The position numbers and the translations under genes were made by a program. The notes beneath the pieces are model-generated. The model made no database searches. It worked only from the letters and a program-made list of their open reading frames with translations, and had not been told where the DNA came from. A DNA stretch of 64,000 bases from contig CAJLHF010000003.1 in assembly GCA_905206365.1 (NCBI GenBank), forward strand, positions 2,589 through 66,588, given 5' to 3'. Of this stretch, positions 4,977 to 58,331 are shown in pieces (position 1 is the first letter of the stretch; the number at the start of each line of letters is the position of its first letter). Source of the stretch: an uncultured Sutterella sp. (GTDB lineage: Bacteria; Pseudomonadota; Gammaproteobacteria; Burkholderiales; Burkholderiaceae_F).

Positions 4977-5720
4977 TTACCAGAAATTTTCCGCCACGAG
5001 TTGTCCCGGCTTTCCGAAGCGGGGCGAGACGATGCCGCGTTCCTTGAAAACCGCGCGCGTGGCCGTGATGAAGTCGGGGTTGCCGCAAAGAAGAACGCGC
5101 GAGGTTTCGGGCGTAATGTTCTTCCCGACGTGCGCTTCGAGTTCTCCCGATTCGAGAAGCGCGGGAATGCGACCCGAGAGGTCGCCGCGGCGACCGTCTT
5201 CTTCTTCGCGGGTGGTGGAGACGACGAGCGTGAATTCGCCCGGGAACGCCGTATCGACGAGTTCGCGGGCGACGGCTGCGTCTTCGAAATTGCGCACGCT
5301 CAGAACGAGTACGACGTCCTTGCGGGTCTCCCAGAGGGACTTCGAGCGGAGCATCGAGAGAAAAGGCGAAAGGCCCGAGCCCGTCGCAAAGAGCCAGAGA
5401 GTCTCGCCTCCGGGGATGCGACCGGGAAGGAGGTTCCCTTCGGCAACGCCCTCAAGAAGGGCCGTCTCGCCCGGCTCCAGATCTGTGAGGCGGGGCGAAA
5501 GGGCGCCGCCTTCGACGCGCGTCACGAGAAAACGAAGAACGTTTTCTTCCGGAGCGGATGCAACGGAATAAGCGCGCATGAGGGGATCGGCACCTTCGAC
5601 GGGAAGGCCGATGCGGGCGAACTGGCCCGCTTCGAAGGACCAGCCTTCGGGGCGCGTGAATTCGAGCACGAACAGGTTGGGAGCGGCCCGGCGTTTCGAC
5701 GTAAGCGTGATGATCTGCAT
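4977..5720 (-). CDS. fpr: Ferredoxin--NADP(+) reductase (Fpr-type FAD/NAD-binding oxidoreductase)
   Basis: 247 aa from internal ATG (MQIITL...); RAYSVAS FAD-binding motif, GTGLSPF NAD-binding motif, ends ...VAENFW; the N-terminal 103 aa of ORF 4977..6029 is artefactual. Confidence 0.85.
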   Translation of the reverse strand: MQIITLTSKRRAAPNLFVLEFTRPEGWSFEAGQFARIGLPVEGADPLMRAYSVASAPEENVLRFLVTRVEGGALSPRLTDLEPGETALLEGVAEGNLLPGRIPGGETLWLFATGSGLSPFLSMLRSKSLWETRKDVVLVLSVRNFEDAAVARELVDTAFPGEFTLVVSTTREEEDGRRGDLSGRIPALLESGELEAHVGKNITPETSRVLLCGNPDFITATRAVFKERGIVSPRFGKPGQLVAENFW

Positions 5721-9378: not shown

Positions 9379-9511
9379 TCCACCCAAGCCCCCGCATGAA
9401 TGCGGAGAAATCCTGCGGGTTTCGTTCGAAGCGTCTTGAGGACCCTCGCAAAGAAACGCGCCGACTCCCCGCGAGGACGTCGGCGCGTTTTTCATCCGCC
9501 AGGGCGAAGGC

Positions 9512-10285
9512 TCAGACCGAGCCGCGTCGCACTTGCTCGAAGAGGTCGCGGTACATCACCCAGATGCCCGCCTGACTCACGGTCGAAAGGACGGCGATCA
9601 GAAGCGGAGCCACGTAGGGGAGCGCGTTCGGAAGGCCGACCGCGGCGAAGAGGGCTTCGAGAATCAGGCCCGAACCGGCCGTGAGACCGAAAAGGAGCAC
9701 GACGAAAACAACGACGGGCGGAAGGTTGCGCAACACCCCGAAGAAGGAATAAAAGAGGCTCTTTCCGAGGGCTTGGCGCTTGTCGGCCACAAGAAGCGGC
9801 GCGAAGACCGTCATCATGAGGAGCGGCACGTAAAGAACGACGGTCGTCACAAAGGCCGTCACGGGAAGATTCGCCATCACGGATTCGAAATCGATCCCTT
9901 TTTCGGTGATTTTCCAGGCGGCGATGGCGTCCGCACCGAGGTAGTCGAAGATCACCATTTCCACTTCGAACCAGAGCGAACTCAGAAGACCGATCCCGAG
10001 GAGCGGCCAGCGGCTCGGCGCGTCGCGAAAAATCTGCGAAAGCATCTGGTACGAGGGGACGCGCCCTTCGAGCGTGTCGCGCGCGGCGTAGCCCGTGAGT
10101 ACGGCGCCGAACGGCATCCAGCAGCTCGCGAGGATCGCACCGATGAAGGGGAAGCCCGAGAGCAGACCGCTCACGAGGGTCGAGAAAATCACGATGCCGG
10201 GCAGCGCCACGGGCTGACGGCGAAGGGCGGAAAGACTCTCCTTGAACCAGACGAGGCCGTCCGAGAAAGCAGGTGTTTGTGCCAT
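9512..10285 (-). CDS. Integral membrane protein of unknown function
   Basis: 257 aa with 5-6 predicted TM helices; no catalytic motif recognised. Confidence 0.5.
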   Translation of the reverse strand: MAQTPAFSDGLVWFKESLSALRRQPVALPGIVIFSTLVSGLLSGFPFIGAILASCWMPFGAVLTGYAARDTLEGRVPSYQMLSQIFRDAPSRWPLLGIGLLSSLWFEVEMVIFDYLGADAIAAWKITEKGIDFESVMANLPVTAFVTTVVLYVPLLMMTVFAPLLVADKRQALGKSLFYSFFGVLRNLPPVVVFVVLLFGLTAGSGLILEALFAAVGLPNALPYVAPLLIAVLSTVSQAGIWVMYRDLFEQVRRGSV

Positions 10286-10392
10286 GGGGTGGGGTTAGGT
10301 AGTGCGGTGTGGGAGCAGGCGCTCGTCAACGTAAAACGCCCGGGCGGCGATGTCGCTCGGGCGCATCGAAAACGAACGAGGTCGTGCGGGGA

Positions 10393-10830
10393 TTACCAGC
10401 CGAACTCGATGAACTTCGGGGTGCCGAGGGTGCTCTTCGAGTTGCCGCCCGGGGTCGAGTCTATCGGGCGTTCGGCCTGGTTTTGCATCGAATAAGGAAT
10501 CTGAGTGGAGCCCGGCGTCACGACGTATTCGGTGACGCGGTTGTCCTGGTCGCGCACGGCTTCGATCGTCGTACGCTTGCTATGAACTTTCGGAACGATC
10601 CCCATTTCACGATCGGCGCGGGCCTTCTCCAGGTCCGCTTCGCTCGGAGCGATCTGCATGCCTTCGCTTTTGGCCTTCGGAGGCAGCGTTCGGGCGGGCG
10701 GAGGCACCTGAACCTTCGAGGGGGAGACGTCGCCCGCGTAGGGCGGAAGCTCGTCGGACGGGGTTGCGGGGGCGGCCGCAAGCCCCATCGAAGCGCAAAG
10801 CGCGGCGGTGAGGAGGAACGGCTTGATCAT
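10393..10830 (-). CDS. Secreted/periplasmic protein of unknown function (DUF2782-like, commonly next to polA in betaproteobacteria)
   Basis: 145 aa; N-terminal signal peptide (MIKPFLLTAALCASMGLAAA); Pro-rich linker; C-terminal conserved block TTIEAVRDQDNRVTEYVVTPGSTQIPYSM. Confidence 0.5.
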   Translation of the reverse strand: MIKPFLLTAALCASMGLAAAPATPSDELPPYAGDVSPSKVQVPPPARTLPPKAKSEGMQIAPSEADLEKARADREMGIVPKVHSKRTTIEAVRDQDNRVTEYVVTPGSTQIPYSMQNQAERPIDSTPGGNSKSTLGTPKFIEFGW

Positions 10831-11187
10831 ACGGATATCCTTGCTGAAAAATCTCCCGAAAAGCGGGAGTAGGGCCGGGCGGCGGGTTTTGCGCCCGTTC
10901 GCGGGCCGCGGAATGCGGTCGTGTGTTCTTCGTGCGACATGTTTGGTGGCCGTGCCGCTCGGGGACGGTCGGTCGCAGTCGCTTCCGTACCGTCATTCTG
11001 CCACGTTGCCCGGGGCCGGCGCCTCGGGACGAGCACGAATTTCAGGGGCGCTCGAGCGGTTTGGCCGTGAGGAAACGCAATACGTCGCCGCCCCGAGCGC
11101 GGCGTCAACCCTCCGGCACGGTCGACGGCTTCCGCATCCAGTATCCTTGAGGTCTCCAAAGCATTTTTACGGACGACGCAACCAGTC

Positions 11188-14100
11188 ATGTCGACGCTAC
11201 TACTCATTGACGGATCGAACTATCTTTTCCGTGCCTACCACGGCCTGCCGCCGCTCTCCACGTCGAACGGCGAACCGACGGGCGCCATGCGGGGCTTTCT
11301 CGGCATGCTCGGGCGCGTCCAGGGCATGGTGAAGCCCGATCGTGCGCTCGTCGTTTTCGACGCGCCCGGGAAGAATTTCCGTCACGCGATGTATCCCGAG
11401 TACAAGGCGAATCGTCCGCCGATGCCCGACGATCTGCGCGTGCAGATCGAGCCCCTTCAGAAGGTTCTCCCCGATCTCGGGTGGCCGCTTCTCGTCGTGC
11501 CCGGTGTCGAAGCCGACGACGTTATTGCGACGCTTGCCCGGAAAGGGCGAGCCGAAGGGATGAAAATCGTCATCGCGACGGGCGACAAGGACATGGCGCA
11601 GCTCGTCGACGAGAACGTGACGCTTCTCAACACGATGAACACCAAGTTCTACGACCGAGACGGCGTGATTGAAAAGTACGGCGTTCCGCCCGAGCGCATC
11701 ATCGACTACCTCGCGCTCATGGGCGACAAGGTCGACAACGTCCCCGGGATTGAAAAGTGCGGTGAAAAAACAGCCGCCAAGTGGATCGCCCAGTTCGGAA
11801 GCCTCGACGAAATCAAGCGTCGCGCCGACGAGGTGAAGGGGAAGATCGGCGAAAACCTCCGCAAGGGTCTTCCCTTCCTGGACGAAGCGCGAAAGCTCGT
11901 CACGATCAAGGACGATTGCGAGCTGCCCGTCTCGGGTCTCGAAGAGCTCGACTTTCGCACGCCGTCGGCGGAAGCGCTTCGTGCATTCGCGCGCCGCTGG
12001 GAAATGTCGAACGAAACGATTCTGCGAGCGCTTCCGTCCGGGATGCGCGCCCGCGTGAAGACGGCGCTTGAAGCCGCGCACGAGACTCCGCACGAGGCTC
12101 CGAACACTACGGGCACCACCGGGTCGCTTTTCGACTTGGGCGAACTCGACGCGATGCCCGCTCCCGTCCCCGTTCCGGGCGACACGCCCCGAAACCTCGG
12201 GGTCGAACCCGATTCGACCCCGCAAGCGGTCGAAATCGGTACGGCCGAGCGCGTCGCCCGTCTGCAGGGTGCGATCGGCGCGAGCGAAGCGGGCGACGCT
12301 CCCGACGAACTTCCCTTTACGCGTATCGAAGATCCGCTGCAGCTCGCGGACTTTGCGGCGCGACTCGCGGATGTCTCCGCGCGGTGCGACTTCCCGACGG
12401 GGATTTCGCTTCACTTTGAGGGCGACTGTCGTCGCGCGCGCCTGGCGGGCGTTGCGTTCGCGCTTTCGCCCAAGGACGTGACCGTCGTTCTCGCGTCAGA
12501 GAGCCTTCCCGCCGAAGCAATCGCGGCGGGGCTTTCGGGCTGGTTGGCCGGCGATGCTCCCAAGGTCTTTCACGACGCGAAGACGATGCTTCACGTCCTT
12601 GCCGCCGCGGGTGCTCCCGTCGAAGGGCGGGTCGACGACACGATGCTCATGGACTACGTTGTCGAAGCGCACGTGAAGCACGACCTCCCGAAACTTGCCG
12701 CCCGCTACCTCGCCCGTACGATTCCGGAACGCGAGGCCGTGTTCGGCAAGGGCGCAAAACGCAAGGCCTGGACCGAAGTGCCGCGCGGAGAGGTGGAAAA
12801 ACTTCTCGCCGAAGAAGCCGCGTCCGTTCGCGCGATTTCGTCCGTGCTGGGCTCCGTGCTTCGCGCCGACGAGGTGCTTTGGCCAATTTACGACGAGATC
12901 GAACGTCCTCTCCTCAAGGTCCTTTTCCGCATGGAAAATACGGGCGTTGCGGTGGACGGGTTCCTGCTCGCGCGCGAATCCGAAGAGCTCGGGGTGCGTA
13001 TCGATGCGCTCGAAGCCGAAGCGGAACGCGTGGCGGGGACCGCTTTCAACCTCTCGAGCCCGAAGCAATTGGGGAAGATTCTTTTCGAAGACTTGAAGCT
13101 TCCCGTTCTCAAGAAGACCCCGTCGGGGACGCCCTCGACCGACGAAGACGTTCTGACGGAGCTTGCACTCGACTATCCGCTTCCGAAGATCGTCCTCGAG
13201 CACCGGCGTTTGACGAAGCTTCGGAGTACGTACCTGGAAAAGCTTCCCCGCATGGCGGACCCCGTCGACGGGCGCGTGCACACGACTTTCGGGCAGGCGA
13301 CGGCCGTGACGGGGCGTCTTGCGAGTTCCGACCCGAATCTTCAGAACATTCCCGTCCGTACCGAAGAGGGGCGGCGCGTGCGCGAAGCGTTCGTCGCCGA
13401 GCGCGGCTCGGTCATCGTGTCCGCGGACTACTCGCAGGTGGAGTTGCGCATCATGGCGCACCTCTCGAAGGACCGAGGGCTCCTTGACGCGTTCGCGCGC
13501 GGTGAAGACATTCACCGCTCGACCGCGGCCGAAGTCTTCGGTCGTCCGATCGAAGCGGTGACGCCCGACGAACGCCGCATGGCCAAAGTGATCAACTTCG
13601 GTCTCATCTACGGGATGAGCGCCTTCGGTCTCGCGCAGAACCTCGGGATCGACCGTCGCGTGGCGGCCAATTACATCGACGCCTACTTCACGCGCTATCC
13701 GGGCGTGAAGCGCTACATGGATGAAATGCGCGCGCTCGCACACGAGCAGGGGTTCGTCGAAACCGTGTTCGGTCGTCGACTCTGGATCCCCGACATCAAG
13801 AGCGGCCGCAAACCCGTGCAGGCGGCCGCCGAGCGAGCGGCCATCAACGCTCCCATGCAGGGAACGGCCGCCGATGTCATCAAGAAAGCGATGATTGCGG
13901 TCGATGCCTGGTTGCGCGAACGCAAGCTCGGTGCCCGACTCGTCCTTCAGGTGCATGACGAACTCATCCTCGAAGTGCCCGAGGCCGAAGTCGAACTCGT
14001 GAAGACCGAAGTGCCTAAGCTCATGCGCGAGGCGGCCGAACTCGAGGTGCCCCTCATCGCCGAGGTGGGCTCGGGCGACAGCTGGGAGGCGGCGCACTGA
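11188..14100 (+). CDS. polA: DNA polymerase I
   Basis: 970 aa; 5-prime nuclease, 3-prime-5-prime exonuclease and polymerase domains (RRxhKxxNFGxxYG, QVHDEL motifs); contains a ~90-aa low-complexity linker after the 5-prime nuclease domain. Confidence 0.95.
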   Translation: MSTLLLIDGSNYLFRAYHGLPPLSTSNGEPTGAMRGFLGMLGRVQGMVKPDRALVVFDAPGKNFRHAMYPEYKANRPPMPDDLRVQIEPLQKVLPDLGWPLLVVPGVEADDVIATLARKGRAEGMKIVIATGDKDMAQLVDENVTLLNTMNTKFYDRDGVIEKYGVPPERIIDYLALMGDKVDNVPGIEKCGEKTAAKWIAQFGSLDEIKRRADEVKGKIGENLRKGLPFLDEARKLVTIKDDCELPVSGLEELDFRTPSAEALRAFARRWEMSNETILRALPSGMRARVKTALEAAHETPHEAPNTTGTTGSLFDLGELDAMPAPVPVPGDTPRNLGVEPDSTPQAVEIGTAERVARLQGAIGASEAGDAPDELPFTRIEDPLQLADFAARLADVSARCDFPTGISLHFEGDCRRARLAGVAFALSPKDVTVVLASESLPAEAIAAGLSGWLAGDAPKVFHDAKTMLHVLAAAGAPVEGRVDDTMLMDYVVEAHVKHDLPKLAARYLARTIPEREAVFGKGAKRKAWTEVPRGEVEKLLAEEAASVRAISSVLGSVLRADEVLWPIYDEIERPLLKVLFRMENTGVAVDGFLLARESEELGVRIDALEAEAERVAGTAFNLSSPKQLGKILFEDLKLPVLKKTPSGTPSTDEDVLTELALDYPLPKIVLEHRRLTKLRSTYLEKLPRMADPVDGRVHTTFGQATAVTGRLASSDPNLQNIPVRTEEGRRVREAFVAERGSVIVSADYSQVELRIMAHLSKDRGLLDAFARGEDIHRSTAAEVFGRPIEAVTPDERRMAKVINFGLIYGMSAFGLAQNLGIDRRVAANYIDAYFTRYPGVKRYMDEMRALAHEQGFVETVFGRRLWIPDIKSGRKPVQAAAERAAINAPMQGTAADVIKKAMIAVDAWLRERKLGARLVLQVHDELILEVPEAEVELVKTEVPKLMREAAELEVPLIAEVGSGDSWEAAH

Positions 14101-15896: not shown

Positions 15897-16015
15897 CCGA
15901 CTCCGTGGACGTCTCCGGAAGGGCGGCGGTACAGGCGGAGCCCGGCCGCAGAGGGGCTTGCGAGGGATGTCATGCTCGCAGGTGACCTGACACGCGGGGG
16001 TACTTCTCATGGAGA

Positions 16016-16066
16016 ACAAGGTGGAGGGCGTTGAGCTTGAACTCATGAGTGAACCGGTAGCGGGGC
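16016..16066 (+). repeat. 51-bp direct repeat, copy 1 (left boundary of the LysR-flavoprotein segment)
   Basis: ACAAGGTGGAGGGCGTTGAGCTTGAACTCATGAGTGAACCGGTAGCGGGG; differs at 4 of 51 positions from copy 2 at 18866..18916. Confidence 0.7.
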
Positions 16067-16132
16067 ATGGCCATGGAAGAACTCCTTGAAAGAGGCTGTG
16101 TCGAGCTTGAAATTCGGATGGCCGCCGACACC

Positions 16133-17116
16133 TCAACTTTGACCCTTATCTCCAACCTTCCAAAACAGTCCGTTGTGTCTTTGCTCAAACGGCAGTCCCA
16201 CGGTTCGATAACGGGACAGGGCAGCCTGACGTTCCCGTTCGACAAACCAATTCATGAAGCAGTCAAGTTCGGGATCGTCTGCCGAATTTTGTCTTACCGT
16301 GAGCGTCACTCGAAACGGTTCCCGACTCCATCCGTTCAGAACCGGCACGACTTCCCCTGACGCCAAATCATCCCGAATGCTCGCCGTCGGCAGGTCGAGC
16401 GCAACGCCCAAGCCCACACGCAGAGCGCTTTGAATCGTCAGAAAATCTCCCGACAGCATATGCGCCGCCTTGAAGGGGCGACGCTCCAGGCCGCGTACGA
16501 GGCAATGCGATTCAGGATAGTTCCTTGCTGTTCTCATCAGCAACGTATGCCGGGACAGATCCTCCGGTCTTTCGGGCATGCCGTGCCGTTCTACATACGC
16601 TTTCGATGCGACCGGCAAAACGCCGAGACAATGAATGAAGCGGTTGCAGAGATTCGGATCCTCTGGCATGTAAAGAAGATAGGCGACATCCACACGGTTC
16701 CTCAGCAAATCCAGGTGATCCACTTCGGTCACCACCTCGATGTCAATTTTCGGTGCGATCTGCTTGTATTCGGCAAGCATCGCCAAAAGCTGTTCCCGCG
16801 GATAGCCGGCAACCACCCCGAAACGAATCAGGTGTCCGTGATCGTTTCGGCATCGGGTCAACTTGGACCACAGCTCATTGTGCTGATCCAAAAAAGCTTT
16901 GATGCTTGGAATGTGTTCTTCGCCGTAGGTCGTCAATCGCATGGGCCTCGCTGATCGATCAAAGAAACGTGCGTTGAGCCGTTCCTCCATGGCCGAGATC
17001 AGACGGCTCACCATGGCGACATCCATGTCCAAAGCCACAGCCGCATCCCGCATGGATGCACACCGCGCCACTTCCACAATGGCCTTCCAGGCCGCGATGT
17101 TGTTTTCTATCCTCAT
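16133..17116 (-). CDS. LysR-family transcriptional regulator
   Basis: 327 aa; N-terminal wHTH (MRDAAVALDMDVAMVSRLISAMEERLNARFFDR) and LysR substrate-binding domain; divergent from the flavoprotein gene. Confidence 0.9.
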   Translation of the reverse strand: MRIENNIAAWKAIVEVARCASMRDAAVALDMDVAMVSRLISAMEERLNARFFDRSARPMRLTTYGEEHIPSIKAFLDQHNELWSKLTRCRNDHGHLIRFGVVAGYPREQLLAMLAEYKQIAPKIDIEVVTEVDHLDLLRNRVDVAYLLYMPEDPNLCNRFIHCLGVLPVASKAYVERHGMPERPEDLSRHTLLMRTARNYPESHCLVRGLERRPFKAAHMLSGDFLTIQSALRVGLGVALDLPTASIRDDLASGEVVPVLNGWSREPFRVTLTVRQNSADDPELDCFMNWFVERERQAALSRYRTVGLPFEQRHNGLFWKVGDKGQS

Positions 17117-17129
17117 GCGACAGCTTTTG

Positions 17130-17147
17130 TTGTTGATTTATCAACAA
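17130..17147. promoter_or_regulatory. Perfect palindrome TTGTTGAT-TT-ATCAACAA in the LysR/flavoprotein divergent promoter region; candidate LysR-type operator
   Basis: 8-2-8 inverted repeat 14 bp upstream of the lysR start codon, in the 109-bp divergent intergenic region. Confidence 0.5.
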
Positions 17148-17225
17148 TGATTGTAGATCCACTCTTAACAGGGGTCAGCATCCATCCTAAACTGAGTTTA
17201 CTTCGACCAAAGGAGGACCTTACCC

Positions 17226-19036: not shown

Positions 19037-20269
19037 TCAGGCTTCGCCTTCGACGTAGGGTTCCTTGCCGAGGTCGCCTTCGAGGTTCGTGACGATAACC
19101 GCGGAGGCCACGTCGCCCACCACGTTGATCGAGGTGCGGATCATGTCGAGGATACGGTCGATGCCGGCAATGAGCGCCACGGCTTCAAGCGGGATGCCGA
19201 CCTGCGTGAAGACGATCGTCGTCATGATGAGACCCGCACCGGGGACGCCTGCGGTGCCGACGGCGGCGAGAACGCCCATCAGAACGATCGTCATCTGGTC
19301 GACCATCGTGAGGTCAAGCCCGTAGACTTCCGCGGCGAAGATCGAACACACACCCATGTAGACGGCCGTGCCGTTCATGTTGATGGTGTTGCCGAGCGGA
19401 ATCGAGAAGGAGGCGATGCTCTTGGTCGCACCGAGACGGCGGGCGGCGGCGAGATTCGCCGGAAGAGCCGCAGCCGACGAGCAGGTCGTGAAGGCGATGA
19501 GCCAGGGCTCGAAAATGCCGCGCAGGAACTTCATCATCGGAATGCGCGCCAGGATGTAGACGAGCGGGATGAGAACGAGGAAGACGAGGGTCGCCGTTGC
19601 GAGGAAGGAGGACAGAATGAGCTGGAAGAGGGGCAGCAACACCTGAAGGCCGTGACGCGAAACCGTGTAGGCCATCAAACCGAAGACGCCGATCGGAGCG
19701 TAGTGCATGACCATGTTCGTCACGCGCACCATCGTGTCGCCCACGAGTTCGAAGAACTTGAGCACGGGCTTGCCGCGTTCACCGAGGCCGGCAAGCGCGA
19801 AGCCGAAGATCACCGCAAAGAAGATGATCTGAAGCATGTTGCCCTTGGCAAAGGCTTCCATCGGGTTGATCGGCACGATGTCAAGGAGCGTATCGACGAG
19901 CGCCGGAGGCGTCACCTGCTTGGCCTGGAGGCCTTCGGTCGAGAGGTTGATCCCGAGGCCGGGCTGAATGACGGAAGCGAAAACGAGACCGATCGCCACG
20001 GAGACGGCCGTCGTGATCGCATAGACGCAGAGGACCTTCGTCGCGACGCGCCCGAGCTTGGACGTGTCGGAGATGCCGGCCGCACCGGCGATGATGGTGG
20101 CGATCACCAACGGAACGACCACCATGCGGATCAAACGAATAAAGAGCGTGCCGAGCGGCTGCAGGTATGTCTGCGCAAAGCTTGAATCGACCACGGCACC
20201 GACGGCGATACCGAGTGCAAGGCCGATCATCATCTGCCATGCAAGGCTGATTTTCATTTTGGAGGCCAT
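19037..20269 (-). CDS. Dicarboxylate/amino acid:cation symporter (DAACS family; DctA/GltP-like C4-dicarboxylate transporter)
   Basis: 410 aa from internal ATG with RBS GGTGGAGATA; multiple TM segments and the family-typical re-entrant-loop serine-rich motifs (SSAAALPA...); the first 44 codons of ORF 19037..20401 are not coding. Confidence 0.85.
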   Translation of the reverse strand: MASKMKISLAWQMMIGLALGIAVGAVVDSSFAQTYLQPLGTLFIRLIRMVVVPLVIATIIAGAAGISDTSKLGRVATKVLCVYAITTAVSVAIGLVFASVIQPGLGINLSTEGLQAKQVTPPALVDTLLDIVPINPMEAFAKGNMLQIIFFAVIFGFALAGLGERGKPVLKFFELVGDTMVRVTNMVMHYAPIGVFGLMAYTVSRHGLQVLLPLFQLILSSFLATATLVFLVLIPLVYILARIPMMKFLRGIFEPWLIAFTTCSSAAALPANLAAARRLGATKSIASFSIPLGNTINMNGTAVYMGVCSIFAAEVYGLDLTMVDQMTIVLMGVLAAVGTAGVPGAGLIMTTIVFTQVGIPLEAVALIAGIDRILDMIRTSINVVGDVASAVIVTNLEGDLGKEPYVEGEA

Positions 20270-20801
20270 TATCTCCACCCCTAGCGATTGTTGGAATTGT
20301 GTTGGCGTTCGGGAGCAACTGCGCGACCGAACCGAGACGGAAAACCGTGCCGTTGAGAACGATTCTAGGGAGCGGCGCACTTTGTAATAATGCGTAAACA
20401 ATTAAGTGTAAATACGTAATCCCTATACAAATCGCTAAAAACACTGTGGTTTATTTGGATTTTTATAAAATTTCGGCCTCAAAAACGAAATCCCGACGGT
20501 TTGCGCCAACGCAAAAGACTGCGAAAAAACGCAAATTGTGCACATGAGGGAATTACTCCTTAGTGGGTAGGTTTCGCGTAAAGACGAGAATTTCTTTTGA
20601 GAAACATCCATTTTTTGTAAGATGTAGCTCCGTTCGGAAGGGTTTTGACGCGCTCGAAAACGTGAGGATCGGGTTCTTTTTTTTCGTGCGGCTCCGCATA
20701 ATCCGCTAACCTTAAGCGTTTTCCACAAGCTATCCTCCGACTCCCCGCTCTCGAAGGTGCTTGTTTCCGTTTCCGCTTCCTTGCAAAAGGTTCCACCGAC
20801 C

Positions 20802-21719
20802 ATGCTTTGGCTCGTTATCGAAGTGGCTCTGGCCAACCTTCTCACGCGTTTCGTCGCGCTCGCGGCGGCCCTCTGGGTGTCGCACCGGTCGCTTGCGCGC
20901 TGGGGCGAGCGTCTGCTCGGCGTGGCGAGCGGCTTTCTCGCCACGCTTTCGCTCACGCATCTCTTGCCGGAAGCGTTCGAATCCGAAGCGGCGGACCCGC
21001 ACACGCTCGGTCTCGTGATGCTGGGGACGCTCTTTGCGTTCGTACTCCCGGGGCTCGCGTCGGGGCACGCTCACGCGCACGACCATCGAGTCGCGGAACA
21101 CCGCTCCGACGCGGGGGCGTTGCTTACGGGGGCGGCTCTGCACAACATCGTCGACGGCACGCTCGTGGCGGCGGCCTTCATGACGGACGCGCGCGCGGGG
21201 TGGCTCGCGGCCGCGGCCGTTCTGGTGCACGAAATTCCGCAGCAGATCGGCTACGCGATCGTTCTCAAAAGCTGCGGTTTTTCGGAACGAAAGACCGTCG
21301 CCTGCCTTGCGGCGCTCGCGTTGGCGGCCCTGCTCGGGGGCGTGCTCGGGTGCGGGGCGGTCGGGATGAGCGTGGAACTCCTTCCCTATCTTTTGGCGGC
21401 CTCGAGCGTCGCTTTTCTCTACATCACCTTTTCTGCACTCCTACCCGAGGTGCTCCACGCCGCCCTTGAAAAAGGAACGGCGGGCGCGCGCCTTCAGGTG
21501 GCCGTGTCGCTTGCGGCCGGGGCGGTGCTCTCGATGGGGCTTCTCGGCGTCGGGCACGGGCACGAACACGACTTCCCGCACGCGCACGGTCACGATCACG
21601 CGACCGAGACCGCCGAAGCGTCGGGGGCCGACGCGCATCGCGCCGAACACGCCGTTTTCGACGAAAACGCGTCCCCGTACCGTGTGACGGAAGGGCCCGA
21701 GGCCCCCGGAGTCCGCTAA
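20802..21719 (+). CDS. ZIP-family metal (zinc/iron) transporter, ZupT-like
   Basis: ~305 aa; conserved ZIP helices with HNIVDGTLVAAAF and HEIPQQIGYAIVL motifs; His-rich loops (HAHAHDH, HGHEHDFPHAHGHDH); the exact start is uncertain (20757 or 20802). Confidence 0.75.
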   Translation: MLWLVIEVALANLLTRFVALAAALWVSHRSLARWGERLLGVASGFLATLSLTHLLPEAFESEAADPHTLGLVMLGTLFAFVLPGLASGHAHAHDHRVAEHRSDAGALLTGAALHNIVDGTLVAAAFMTDARAGWLAAAAVLVHEIPQQIGYAIVLKSCGFSERKTVACLAALALAALLGGVLGCGAVGMSVELLPYLLAASSVAFLYITFSALLPEVLHAALEKGTAGARLQVAVSLAAGAVLSMGLLGVGHGHEHDFPHAHGHDHATETAEASGADAHRAEHAVFDENASPYRVTEGPEAPGVR

Positions 21720-53100: not shown

Positions 53101-53754
53101 GTCAACCATGCGGCCCTGTTGCAGCTTGAAGAAGCGGAAAAAGTTTTCGAAGCGACGCGCCTTCAGATCGAAGACCTCCGTACGGCCGCGGACACGTTGG
53201 AATCCGCCATTCGTACGATCGACGCGGATACGCGAAGCCGCATGAGGGAGACCTTCGAGCGCGTGAACGCTTACTTCAAAGAGACCTTCACGGGGCTTTT
53301 CGGGGGCGGGCACGCCGAACTTACGATGACCGGTGACGAAATCCTCGCCTCGGGGATCGACGTCACGGCGCAGCCTCCGGGGAAGAAAAACGCCTCCGTT
53401 CGATCGCTCTCCGGGGGCGAGCAGGCGCTCACCGCCACGGCGCTTGTTTTTGCCATGTTCAAACTCAATCCCGCGCCCTTCTGCCTGCTTGACGAAGTGG
53501 ACGCGCCGCTCGACGAAGCGAACCAGGCGCGATTGGCGGGCCTTTGCCTCAAGATGTCGGAGTCGACGCAATTCCTCATGATCACGCACCACCGCGTGAC
53601 GATGGAATTCACTCGGGCCCTGATCGGCGTCACGATGCGCGAGCCCGGGGTGAGCCGCGTCGTGAGCGTCGACCTGGACGAGGCCGTGCGAATCGCCGAG
53701 TCGGCTTCGGGAGATCGTGCGTCGGGCGACGCGGCCCCCGCGACGGTCGGGTAA
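50143..53754 (+). CDS. smc: Chromosome segregation protein SMC
   Basis: 1203 aa; N-terminal Walker A (GPNGCGKSN), long coiled coils, hinge, C-terminal signature LSGGEQALTA and Walker B; GTG start. Confidence 0.9.
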   Translation: MRLRQIKLSGFKSFADPTLIELNDPFVGVVGPNGCGKSNVIDAVRWVLGEGRASELRGLGMTDLIFAGSSGRAPMGRASVELVLENDDGRVKGPWSAYAELSIKRVVTAEGESGYFINHQQVRRRDVQEIFLGTGLGPKSYAIISQGMISNFIRAKPEELRVYLEEAAGVSLYKERRRETESLLRSTLENIERAEDLQTVRGEEIARLKEDAGRAARWKELTDRRTESEGLLYFLQYEDAKNELERVRTEGLATVATLQEKRAAYDESTAEHEGLAKRATAAEHALSAAEVDERRVERELARLEGEAKRSMERRAEAERHLASATATLEAKKARLAAENEQLSADRESRAALTDARDEADALEAEAAERLEAAEIELETAEEGRRQTREALEALRRRTSVDEAALGHERNRLAEIERNRSKTEADRAAAEASRPDEKETARLRDDVDEAEAAAEDCAERLEAAETRLEETRSLADEADKAYFALLADLKAKGSRLSALQEVQAGAEQQAAFSEWLEARGLTGIPAFLDEALVEEGALTALEAVLGARVRTLLLRDLRAASGFESERPPALLSFAAPVPGESVSETSSGALSEALLKLGEQCALRPLADVVTSAHPAVAAAVRDWCAGVGLVESLAEAMRVRESIPEGVVLVTPKGDIVGRASITFFASDAPENSLLARAQEIRRLTDEIEAAEVELGRSDDRRQKAAARATDAKRAVDDARRGVSEAERTLSALKLELKDREAAAAAWRRRDEDLRRSSEELEAERAERALEIESILERLESGAEALENAERADATAAARETAARANSVRLAREAADARERVSILGLKARQLQDADLARTRTIKDLTDDIERERLRVEAARRTIDETDREELDAGTRALVEELERLRRTSAEARNALEVARATLSANEAVSRELQGAMLPLTEAIGTLKLAEGEKKALLEQYSQRMDEVGADWTRMSVVAQTRGVKIGTVRNEVSRLTGEIAALGPVNHAALLQLEEAEKVFEATRLQIEDLRTAADTLESAIRTIDADTRSRMRETFERVNAYFKETFTGLFGGGHAELTMTGDEILASGIDVTAQPPGKKNASVRSLSGGEQALTATALVFAMFKLNPAPFCLLDEVDAPLDEANQARLAGLCLKMSESTQFLMITHHRVTMEFTRALIGVTMREPGVSRVVSVDLDEAVRIAESASGDRASGDAAPATVG

Positions 53755-53987
53755 AACCCACAAACAAACCGCCGAGTGAGCCCACGGCTTCGGTCGTTGG
53801 GGGAAATCGGCGCTTTGAATTGATTGGTGGCACATGTGATCTTCTGTCCGAAGTACCGTTGTCCAGTCCTTGTGGACGAGGAGCTACTTCATCTGCACGG
53901 TGGGATACATCGGCGAAGAAGCGTCAAGCTCCATATCGAAGAACAAAAGGGGAGCTGACGTGGTAAAAACCGATCCCGACTGGCGTC

Positions 53988-54483
53988 ATGCTGCTTGCCG
54001 GTACGGCGAGTTTCATGCAAAAAAAGAATAAGACGGCCGAGGAAAAGGCCGAACTTGAGCTTGTTAAGACCACTTAGAGGAATCTGAAGCTCAAGTACCG
54101 CCTGACGGAGTATCAGTTTCACGAGGAAGTGGCCAAGATGCGCTCGCACTTCGGCAATCCGATTTCCATCAACGAAGCTCAGAAAGCGGCAACGGCGGCC
54201 TTCCGCGCATTTGAGCGGCGAGGCGCACCGCCTGAACAACAAGCCCCGCGGAACTCCCGTTACGATTGAGAACAAGTCAAACTCTTTCGGTTTTCGAGAA
54301 AAAGACGGCAAGCTCCTCGGGTTGAACGGATTCACGGCGAAGTTCCGAATTGCCCCGGACGACCTGCTGCTTCAGGTCTCCTTTGCGGATCGCGCGAAGT
54401 ACGTCTGCATCTTCCGCCGTGAAATATCAGAGGTTCTCGTCAGTCTATTGGGGCAGATTCCGCACCCTTCGGGATGCGGATAA
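53988..54483 (+). pseudogene. Candidate disrupted ORF (in-frame amber stop plus a frameshift) of unknown function in a low-GC gap between smc and zipA
   Basis: Frame 0: MLLAGTASFMQKKNKTAEEKAELELVKTT-TAG(54075)-RNLKLKYRLTEYQFHEEVAKMRSHFGNPISINEAQKAATAAFRAFERRG...TGA(54267). It continues in frame +1 as ORF 54211..54483 (...VTIENKSNSFGFREKDGKLLGLNGFTAKFRIAPDDLLLQVSFADRAKYVCIFRR...). The text is protein-like, local GC (~52%) is far below the window mean, and no intact long ORF is present. Confidence 0.3.
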
Positions 54484-54762
54484 GGTCTCACCCGGCCGCA
54501 AGGTACGGGCTTGTTGGAAAGCGGGAACTTCGGGACCTTTCGGCTTCGGTCGAAAGAGCCCCGCGACTTTAGTCGTCGGGAGTAATCAGTCACAAATTAC
54601 CGGAGCTCCTGTGCCACGGCCCCGTTCATCGGCGAACGCGCGGGTTACAATGCAACAACGCAAACCCCGCGGTTTTCGCCGCACACGGGCGGCCCGACGC
54701 GCTACGGCGTCGGTGTCGCGGATCGTCTTCCAACGCACATCAATTCTTCGCTTCCGAGCATC

Positions 54763-58331
<3,569 letters not shown>

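Follow-up and report, generated by a model that had tools for sequence, protein, structure and literature searches.

What occupies the kilobase of DNA between smc and the next gene of an uncultured Sutterella species, and why does it hold no intact gene? The locus is part of a 64,000-nucleotide (nt) stretch of contig CAJLHF010000003.1 (GenBank assembly GCA_905206365.1, positions 2,589 to 66,588 of the forward strand), to which we refer as the window and in whose numbering positions are given. Here, a gap of 1008 nt (53755..54762) runs from the stop codon of smc (53752-53754) to the start of a zipA-like gene (ATG at 54763), which a first-pass annotation had interpreted as a decaying, horizontally acquired gene at a housekeeping junction, possibly a toxin-antitoxin or phage-derived module, or else as two small genes with stop-codon readthrough. 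The central idea of a decaying acquired gene is borne out by our analysis, with an origin other than those proposed: the gap consists of 7 and 173 nt of native DNA on either side of an 828-bp insert, and this insert is very probably a dead relic of an insertion sequence (IS) of the IS200/IS605 family, with broken tnpA and tnpB genes, which was later deleted in many conspecific strains.

The gap is indeed a low-GC region without an intact gene, at 56.3% GC compared to 62.3% for the window, and its open reading frames (ORFs), taken unrepaired, match no Pfam family apart from a sub-threshold match of ORF 53824..53958 to Y1_Tnp. The earlier estimate of ~52% GC describes the core of the gap well (50.7-53%, the lowest values in the gap, over 300-nt intervals in 53800-54300), but is too low for the gap as a whole. 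Other parts of the window are lower still: the minimum for a kilobase lies near 19.8 kb, and the lowest-GC kilobases, at ~16000-17200 and ~19600-21100, have 52-55% GC, below that of the gap. An Rfam search of the gap (E up to 10) and of the whole window returned nothing relevant, and scanning the gap for promoters gave no sigma-70-like site.

Boundaries, ends and coding remnants of the insert

The only relative in a species-level genome collection, an uncultured Sutterella metagenome-assembled genome with ~88-89% nucleotide identity (L001), aligns to the window by blastn up to 53768 and again from 54587, with nothing in between. Its junction reads GGGTAAAACCCAC directly followed by TCACAAATT, whereas in the window the same two sequences are separated by 53762..54589. 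The junction is likewise empty in ten more contigs of the sister lineage to which L001 belongs (L139-L148) and in the complete S. megalosphaeroides type-strain genome (AP018786, L149), and both outgroup lineages have only ~180 nt at this place, in which TAA is followed by AACCCAC and then by TCACAAATT. Aligning the junction across relatives thus finds sister lineages without the 828 bp, and the comparison with these empty sites (L001, L139-L148 and L149) shows that 828 bp were inserted at 53762..54589 with zero bases duplicated; since the two outgroup lineages share the junction, they also agree on the native sequence. The 3′ part of the native AACCCAC, (C)CCAC, is the target motif, just after which the element inserted, and the 173 nt of native intergenic DNA on the other side are ~89% identical to the outgroup empty sites and ~99% identical to the short alleles of conspecific strains described below (coordinates in Table 1).

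The DNA folds of the two ends of the insert are alike, each a hairpin with an 8-bp stem, a single bulged T and a 4-nt loop, with the foot of the hairpin 19 nt from the boundary at the left and 9 nt at the right. In the IS200/IS605 element IS608 these spacings are 19 nt (left) and 10 nt (right), and insertion takes place 3′ of a tetranucleotide without duplication (PMC3201880). The insert lacks terminal inverted repeats and instead has an imperfect, subterminal hairpin at either end, it lies 3′ of a short specific motif without a target-site duplication, and its cleavage geometry is asymmetric, with the left site outside the element and the right motif inside it. As far as can be read from sequence, every structural hallmark of the family is present, while the functional ones are lost, with neither an HUH core nor a RuvC domain.

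A degenerate pattern of the left end (LE) and right end (RE) hairpins was found in at least 120 metagenomic stretches, in LE-type as well as RE-type contexts, whereas by our own rough reckoning some 15 would arise by chance if the collection holds ~1e12 bases. The RE hairpin with an AG(N3-4)TCAG end is common to L010, L017, L027, L028, L035, L065, L068, L101 and L122, the flanks of which are unrelated and diverge immediately after TCAG. Related LEs are present in L011, L019 and L036, and LE copies like that of the window are preceded by TCAC or TCAT. Separately, the hairpin CCCACGACTTTAGTCGTTGGG is common to at least two other abundant IS200/IS605 subfamilies of anaerobic-digester metagenomes (loci L007-L126, among the matches listed), with an LE preceded by TTAC in one and an RE ending in TAGTTGAC in another; many copies of these metagenome loci lie at contig ends.

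Homology to a transposase is found directly downstream of the LE. Pfam Y1_Tnp gives the unrepaired ORF 53824..53958 a score of 14.8 bits (E = 0.032); with the N-terminal frame HVIFCPKYRCPVLVD joined to the C-terminal frames LWTRSYFICTVGYIGEE... and ...VKLHIEEQKGS, the repaired translation reaches 27.2 bits (cutoff 23, E = 4.6e-6), in a match limited to positions 7-34 and 94-121 of the 121 positions of the profile, and it also matches a PHROG transposase (E = 6.1e-10). The pieces align to residues 31-45 (87% identity) and 114-133 (65%) of the TnpA of L027, a full-length relative, in comparison to which ~68 codons are missing, the HUH region included; the C-terminal piece has an additional frame slip near 53920. 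What is left of the Y1 (HUH) transposase is thus a remnant with its HUH core deleted, and the copy at this locus has no functional tnpA.

The frame that the first-pass annotation had followed across a stop codon and a frameshift turns out to be tnpB. The TAG at 54075-54077 is present in the frame described, as is the 90-residue ORF 54211..54483, and homology places the frameshift at ~54215-54220. In a tblastn search of a 7.3-Gb plasmid collection, the repaired 137-residue frame matches a protein of Clostridium botulinum plasmid p1 (NZ_CP063817) with 37% identity (residues 3-117, E = 1e-6), in an alignment that runs across the frame junction over 115 residues. The continuation of the frame past stop and frameshift is accordingly a matter of homology to real proteins, and homology searches identify the repaired frames as tnpA (by the 27.2-bit Y1_Tnp match) and tnpB. 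The p1 protein is a 493-residue "hypothetical protein" that directly follows an ISCbt1-family tnpA and has homologues on Finegoldia pFMC and Bacillus anthracis pXO1. More generally, the fragment matches proteins of 470-510 residues, including those of the metagenomic relatives L011 (73 bits), L027 (67 bits), L010, L043, L120 and L039; in L027, L010, L011 and others, these sit between tnpA and the same type of RE. The matched proteins are members of the TnpB family: some have weak OrfB_IS605 matches, and against NF040570 (guided_TnpB) they give E = 1e-15 to 2e-27 with scores that all fall under the 100-bit cutoff (56-96 bits), which indicates that the TnpB clade is divergent.

The homology covers the N-terminal interior region of TnpB, and, from its position in the alignment, the surviving piece probably comprises the end of the REC domain and the WED domain. 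The "globular domain" suspected in ORF 54211..54483 is this interior piece of TnpB; the tail of this ORF (…ISEVLVSLLGQIPHPSGCG) is not TnpB, and extends into the 3′ non-coding region of the element. No window sequence aligns beyond TnpB residue ~195, and neither the RuvC (D-E-D) residues nor the zinc finger are present; since this region is deleted, we are dealing with a TnpB pseudogene and not with a TnpB, and the relic encodes no working protein. The tnpB fragment alone matched no Pfam model, and two word-indexed protein searches with the 90-residue ORF and the repaired 137-residue frame returned copies of the locus only. The 828 bp had no blastn match in the plasmid and phage collections, and sequence searches of the PDB with the tnpB fragment and the TnpB of L027 gave nothing meaningful.

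In full-length relatives, ~255 nt separate the tnpB stop codon from the RE boundary. They contain a scaffold of roughly 195 nt, a conserved multi-stem RNA with compensatory changes at 18 of 39 pairs and no Rfam family, at the position that encodes the guide RNAs of TnpB (PMC8612924; PMC10055086). We built a covariance model of this scaffold (R1) from five relatives, with the RE hairpin left out, and searched the 4.5 kb around the gap. The best match, at 54453-54489 on the + strand, is in the expected place but weak and not significant (6.8 bits, E = 0.068); nhmmer found nothing of the scaffold in the gap. In the window's copy, several hairpins form within the final 135 nt (z = -2.0). No more than a piece of the relatives' scaffold would appear to survive here.

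Table 1. Features of the insert and of the native DNA around it, in window numbering.
Feature	Coordinates	Strand	Description
Left GTAA microhomology	53751..53754	+	Overlaps the smc stop codon; deletion endpoint
Native AACCCAC	53755..53761	+	7 nt from the smc stop codon to the insertion; joined to TCACAAATT in both outgroups
Whole insert, probable IS200/IS605-family relic	53762..54589	+ (top strand on +)	828 bp; exact boundaries from empty sites
Left end (LE)	53762..53823	+	Subterminal imperfect hairpin, 19 nt from the left boundary
LE hairpin	53781-53801	+	CCCACGGC-TTCG-GTCG(T)TGGG
tnpA (Y1/HUH transposase) remnant	53824..53958	+	N-terminal piece 53833-53877; C-terminal piece 53861-53950, in another frame
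tnpB remnant	54024..54426	+	Residues ~60-195 of a TnpB of roughly 485 residues
tnpB, first part	54024-54218	+	Frame of 53757; TnpB residues ~60-122; contains TAG 54075-54077
tnpB, second part	54217-54426	+	Frame of ORF 54211..54483; TnpB residues ~126-194
3′ non-coding part with right end (RE)	54427..54589	+	Several short hairpins with UUCG- or GCAA-type loops; RE hairpin; AGTAATCAG
RE hairpin	54560-54580	+	CCCGCGAC-TTTA-GTCG(T)CGGG, then AGTAATCAG
Right GTAA microhomology	54582..54585	+	Inside RE; other deletion endpoint
Right cleavage motif TCAG	54586-54589	+	End of the element
Native intergenic DNA	54590..54762	+	173 nt, intact 3′ of the insertion; colinear with outgroup and conspecific scar sites
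Element hairpin sequence			CCCRCGRCTTYRGTCGTYGGG

Relic and scar alleles in the species

Conspecific contigs (~99% nucleotide identity) were gathered via the exact ZipA-like protein of the window, which is present on 235 contigs, and four one-residue variants. The junction is occupied by the relic in 16 of 39 contigs, and the other 23 (about 60%) have a short gap. The short alleles, which could be taken for true empty sites, are ruled out as such by the sequence of their junction: they read GGGTAA, TCAG and then TCACAAATT, such that the native AACCCAC is gone and the last 4 nt of the element are kept. They are deletion scars. A deletion of 831 nt (53755-54585) between the two copies of GTAA predicts precisely this sequence, and L158 is the exact predicted recombinant; the remaining scar alleles depart from it at a single base near the end of smc, in its last codons. 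The linked variant CCACGATCCCG is present in every scar allele inspected and suggests that they arose once, and precise excision of the TnpA type, which would restore AACCCAC followed by TCAC, was not observed in this species. Because the scar lacks AACCCAC, and given the outgroup state, the order of events runs from the native junction through insertion and decay to microhomology-mediated deletion. Neighbour-joining (NJ) trees of the flanks agree with this, grouping the scar alleles together and placing the occupied ones at the base, although their resolution is low.

The end of smc is itself variable. The last codons (window ~53740-53754) differ among strains, encoding ATVG, ATGG or ATGR before the stop, and two contigs (L173, L174) have a quite different sequence 5′ of GTCGGGTAA. 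Taken together, this points to an Smc C-terminal tail that is hypervariable or recombinant beside the deletion scar.

The disruptions of the reading frames are not sequencing errors, a possibility that the first-pass annotation had raised: 18 independent contigs from different samples share both the TAG and the break in frame (among them L002, L137, L138, L128, L129, L133, L150-L156, L159, L170 and L171, which are 98.6-99.8% identical). Furthermore, the occupied alleles vary more within the relic than around it, with ~40 segregating sites in 828 nt (4.8%) in comparison to 1.7-2.3% in the adjacent smc, intergenic and zipA-like DNA. Nucleotide diversity (π) among four full alleles is higher in the relic (0.015) than in smc (0.006) or the zipA-like gene (0.005). 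One-nucleotide insertions or deletions (indels) segregate in the relic at 53953 and 54018/54019, and the 90-residue ORF has 11 nonsynonymous and 6 synonymous changes, where 76% nonsynonymous changes are expected at random. The variation in the relic thus fits roughly neutral evolution, with no sign of selection on the ORF. Strains with the occupied and with the scar allele coexist and have identical ZipA-like proteins; since the proteins are the same and the 173 nt upstream of the gene are intact in both allele types, the relic is probably neutral or nearly so for its host, and we would predict that the zipA-like gene is still expressed from the retained 173 nt.

Taken together, these observations give a history of the locus. 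The element landed in an ancestor of this Sutterella species, after its split from S. megalosphaeroides, 3′ of (C)CCAC and 7 nt past the smc stop codon; by analogy with the family to which it belongs, this would have happened by single-strand "peel-and-paste" transposition, catalysed by TnpA and via a single-stranded circular intermediate. By our estimate, at least three internal deletions, of ~1.3 kb in total when compared to ~2.2-kb elements such as L027, then removed the TnpA catalytic core, the first ~55-60 codons of TnpB, and a stretch that begins at TnpB codon ~195 and takes in most of the 3′ guide-RNA scaffold. The nonsense mutation (TAG at 54075) and the frameshifts followed these deletions, and in many strains the 831-nt deletion from GTAA to GTAA finally removed the relic together with AACCCAC, leaving the TCAG footprint.

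Points against a dead relic, and other readings

Several points weigh against this interpretation of the insert as a dead IS200/IS605 relic. The outermost parts of the insert, 53762-53800 (39 nt) and 54526-54589 (64 nt), which include both hairpins, show zero variation in 7 haplotypes where ~5 variable sites would be expected (P about 0.005), with boundaries that were chosen post hoc, after seeing the data, in 18 sequences. This might reflect residual constraint; we have no explanation for it, and do not take it as evidence of function. With only four alleles, the conserved parts had seemed larger, ~100 nt of the left end and 140 nt of the right (P about 5e-4), but they shrank with 18 sequences, and we do not rely on them. 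No cognate tnpA, tnpB or second copy of the relic was found elsewhere in the 64-kb window, the rest of the species genome being unsearched, and we recovered no intact copy of the relic's own element: the nearest full-length relatives are ~35-45% identical in TnpB, and because only such distant relatives are available, the sizes and number of the deletions are estimates. Finally, the first 28 nt of L002 (CAAGTCCGTTTTTTCCACCCTCATCCCA) mismatch the relic 5′ of 54035 and match nothing that was fetched. A Logan contig (L157) also starts at ~54033, and the break at window ~54033-54035 may mark another structural form that the relic takes in some strains, or else a contig that is chimeric and of low coverage.

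Of the readings other than a dead relic, the one that fares best, although we consider it unlikely, is a functional non-autonomous element that is moved by TnpA in trans, or a 3′ guide-RNA-like transcript that is used by a TnpB in trans. For the former, there is precedent in PATEs, which are minimal, protein-less IS200/IS605 derivatives (PMC10055086); every recovered copy of the relic is nevertheless at one site only, no second copy accompanies it and no tnpA or tnpB lies elsewhere in the window. Its hairpins and boundary motifs are intact and invariant in the 7 haplotypes, subject to the post hoc choice of regions noted above, and loss has taken place by GTAA-mediated deletion rather than by precise excision. 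For the latter, the best match to the scaffold model in 4.5 kb is in the expected place and on the expected strand, yet it is weak, without an nhmmer counterpart, and most of the scaffold length is missing.

There is also some precedent for a scaffold that stands alone. Orphan modules in other genomes (L017, reverse complement, ~1600-1831; L028, 3190-3427; L035, 3075-3310; L065, reverse complement, ~785-1015) consist of a conserved structured scaffold of ~230 nt, which has no Rfam family, and the RE hairpin followed by AGCTGTCAG. They lie in unrelated gene contexts, with no tnpA or tnpB and with no LE-type hairpin within 500 nt upstream, and look like stand-alone omega-RNA-like genes or RE-only relics. 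In theory, the 3′ segment of the Sutterella relic could likewise be a retained orphan guide-RNA gene, with TCACAAATTACCGGAG, the first bases of the native DNA that lies 5′ of the zipA-like gene, as its guide, used by a TnpB, or a nuclease-dead TnpB-like protein, encoded elsewhere, either for cutting the empty allele or for modulating how the zipA-like gene is expressed. The ends and the hairpin-rich 3′ segment, which are invariant in the sampled haplotypes, might be read in this way, and L017, L028/L035 and L065 would be parallels, but we regard it as a long shot.

The polarity of the alleles could also be reversed, with the short TAA-TCAG-TCAC alleles as the ancestral ones and the 1-kb form as a recent insertion of an already-defective fragment. 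While the short alleles are in the majority (23 vs 16) and the flanks of both forms are ~99.4% identical, the insert would then have had to bring with it AACCCAC, which is exactly the native sequence in two outgroup lineages, and the short allele would have to carry the IS-family terminus TCAG by chance. The basal position of the occupied alleles and the clustering of the scar alleles in the flank trees, despite the low resolution, point the same way, making this reversed order very improbable.

That the gap holds a pair of real small genes, with readthrough of the amber codon in one, is hardly credible. All occupied conspecific alleles do have identical ORF boundaries, the TAG among them, but this reflects the ~99% overall identity and not conservation; a gene caller did predict a 29-residue ORF ending at the TAG in some contigs, whereas both frames align to the interior of TnpB, the 90-residue ORF is without a homologue in 5.8 billion proteins beyond copies of the locus, its substitutions are close to random, indels segregate in the region, and 23 of 39 contigs do without it. 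As for a decayed toxin-antitoxin or prophage-derived module, its probability is negligible, as only its context as small, low-GC acquired DNA speaks for it, while transposase is all that was matched in Pfam and PHROG, no DNA match was found in phage or plasmid collections, and the insert is positively identified as tnpA-tnpB with IS200/IS605 ends.

Relation to known elements and to the flanking genes

As an IS200/IS605 relic, the insert can be compared with IS608 of Helicobacter pylori, the reference element of the family. Both have the order LE-tnpA-tnpB-RE on one strand, which is also that of ISCbt1, and both combine subterminal imperfect hairpins with the lack of terminal inverted repeats, insertion 3′ of a motif and no target duplication (PMC3201880). 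Left cleavage is 19 nt 5′ of the foot of the LE hairpin in both, and the right motif is within ~10 nt 3′ of the foot of the RE hairpin. The relic differs from IS608 in its hairpin sequence, in its target and right end ((C)CCAC and TCAG, in place of TTAC and TCAA), and in a TnpB of a longer (~485 residues), divergent clade; it is also non-functional, with ~1.3 kb deleted, a stop codon and frameshifts.

The closest full-length relatives found are of the ISCbt1 type (C. botulinum p1, NZ_CP063817) and the elements of L027, L010, L011, L043, L120 and L039, in which tnpA is directly followed by a gene for a TnpB-like protein of 481-503 residues. The relic's fragment is 32-37% identical to these over ~115-125 residues, with a weaker match to L010 (29% over 65 residues). 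L027 and L010 have the RE type of the relic (hairpin and AGCAGTCAG), and L011 a related LE. These relatives are full-length and come from Firmicutes and anaerobic-digester contigs of low GC, whereas the relic is found in Sutterella and retains TnpA residues ~31-45 and ~114-145 and TnpB residues ~60-195. Their TnpBs are named "hypothetical protein" in RefSeq and score 56-96 bits against the NCBIfam guided_TnpB cutoff of 100, and the relic's TnpB would thus belong to a poorly annotated clade of ~485-residue proteins. We note that contig L010 has several IS200/IS605-type elements, with a second, more distant tnpA-tnpB pair at 9445-11307, and a sub-threshold match to HEARO RNA at 5174-5435 (42 bits, gathering score 83). 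PATEs, like the relic, are shortened, keep both ends and have no transposase, but they are multi-copy and mobilised in trans, whereas the relic was seen at a single site only, still has recognisable remains of pseudogenes and is disappearing through ordinary deletion.

In practical terms, it is the annotation that matters most: it should record a degenerate IS200/IS605 element that contains pseudogenes of tnpA and tnpB, in place of hypothetical small genes. The locus also offers a clean and datable case of how an IS arrives at a conserved, operon-like junction, decays piecemeal and is lost, and what we see is ordinary IS decay, with no new gene, system or biological mechanism in evidence. Both alleles segregate in human-gut populations, and the polymorphism between occupied and scar alleles could serve as a strain marker.

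Of the three genes in the smc-zipA-ligA cluster that had been proposed, SMC and the NAD-dependent DNA ligase are confirmed by Pfam, and the label of the one between them stands on weaker ground. The product of the zipA-like gene (54763-55950) is a protein of 395 residues with an N-terminal membrane anchor; it has no Pfam match at E ≤ 1, and its match to TIGR02205 is weak (12 bits, E = 0.15) and restricted to the N-terminus. The label thus derives from the position between smc and ligA, the N-terminal membrane-anchor architecture and the UniProt name of the S. megalosphaeroides orthologue. If the protein is a ZipA, its C-terminal domain is very divergent in this Sutterella. The 173 nt upstream of the gene (54590..54762) presumably hold its own promoter and 5′ untranslated region. 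Further downstream, the acidic, proline-rich C-terminal tail of LigA has an 81-nt in-frame presence/absence polymorphism at the 3′ end of ligA (58216-58296), such that LigA has 764 residues in L128 compared to 791, and the proteins with sister-lineage tails have 795 and 803 residues.

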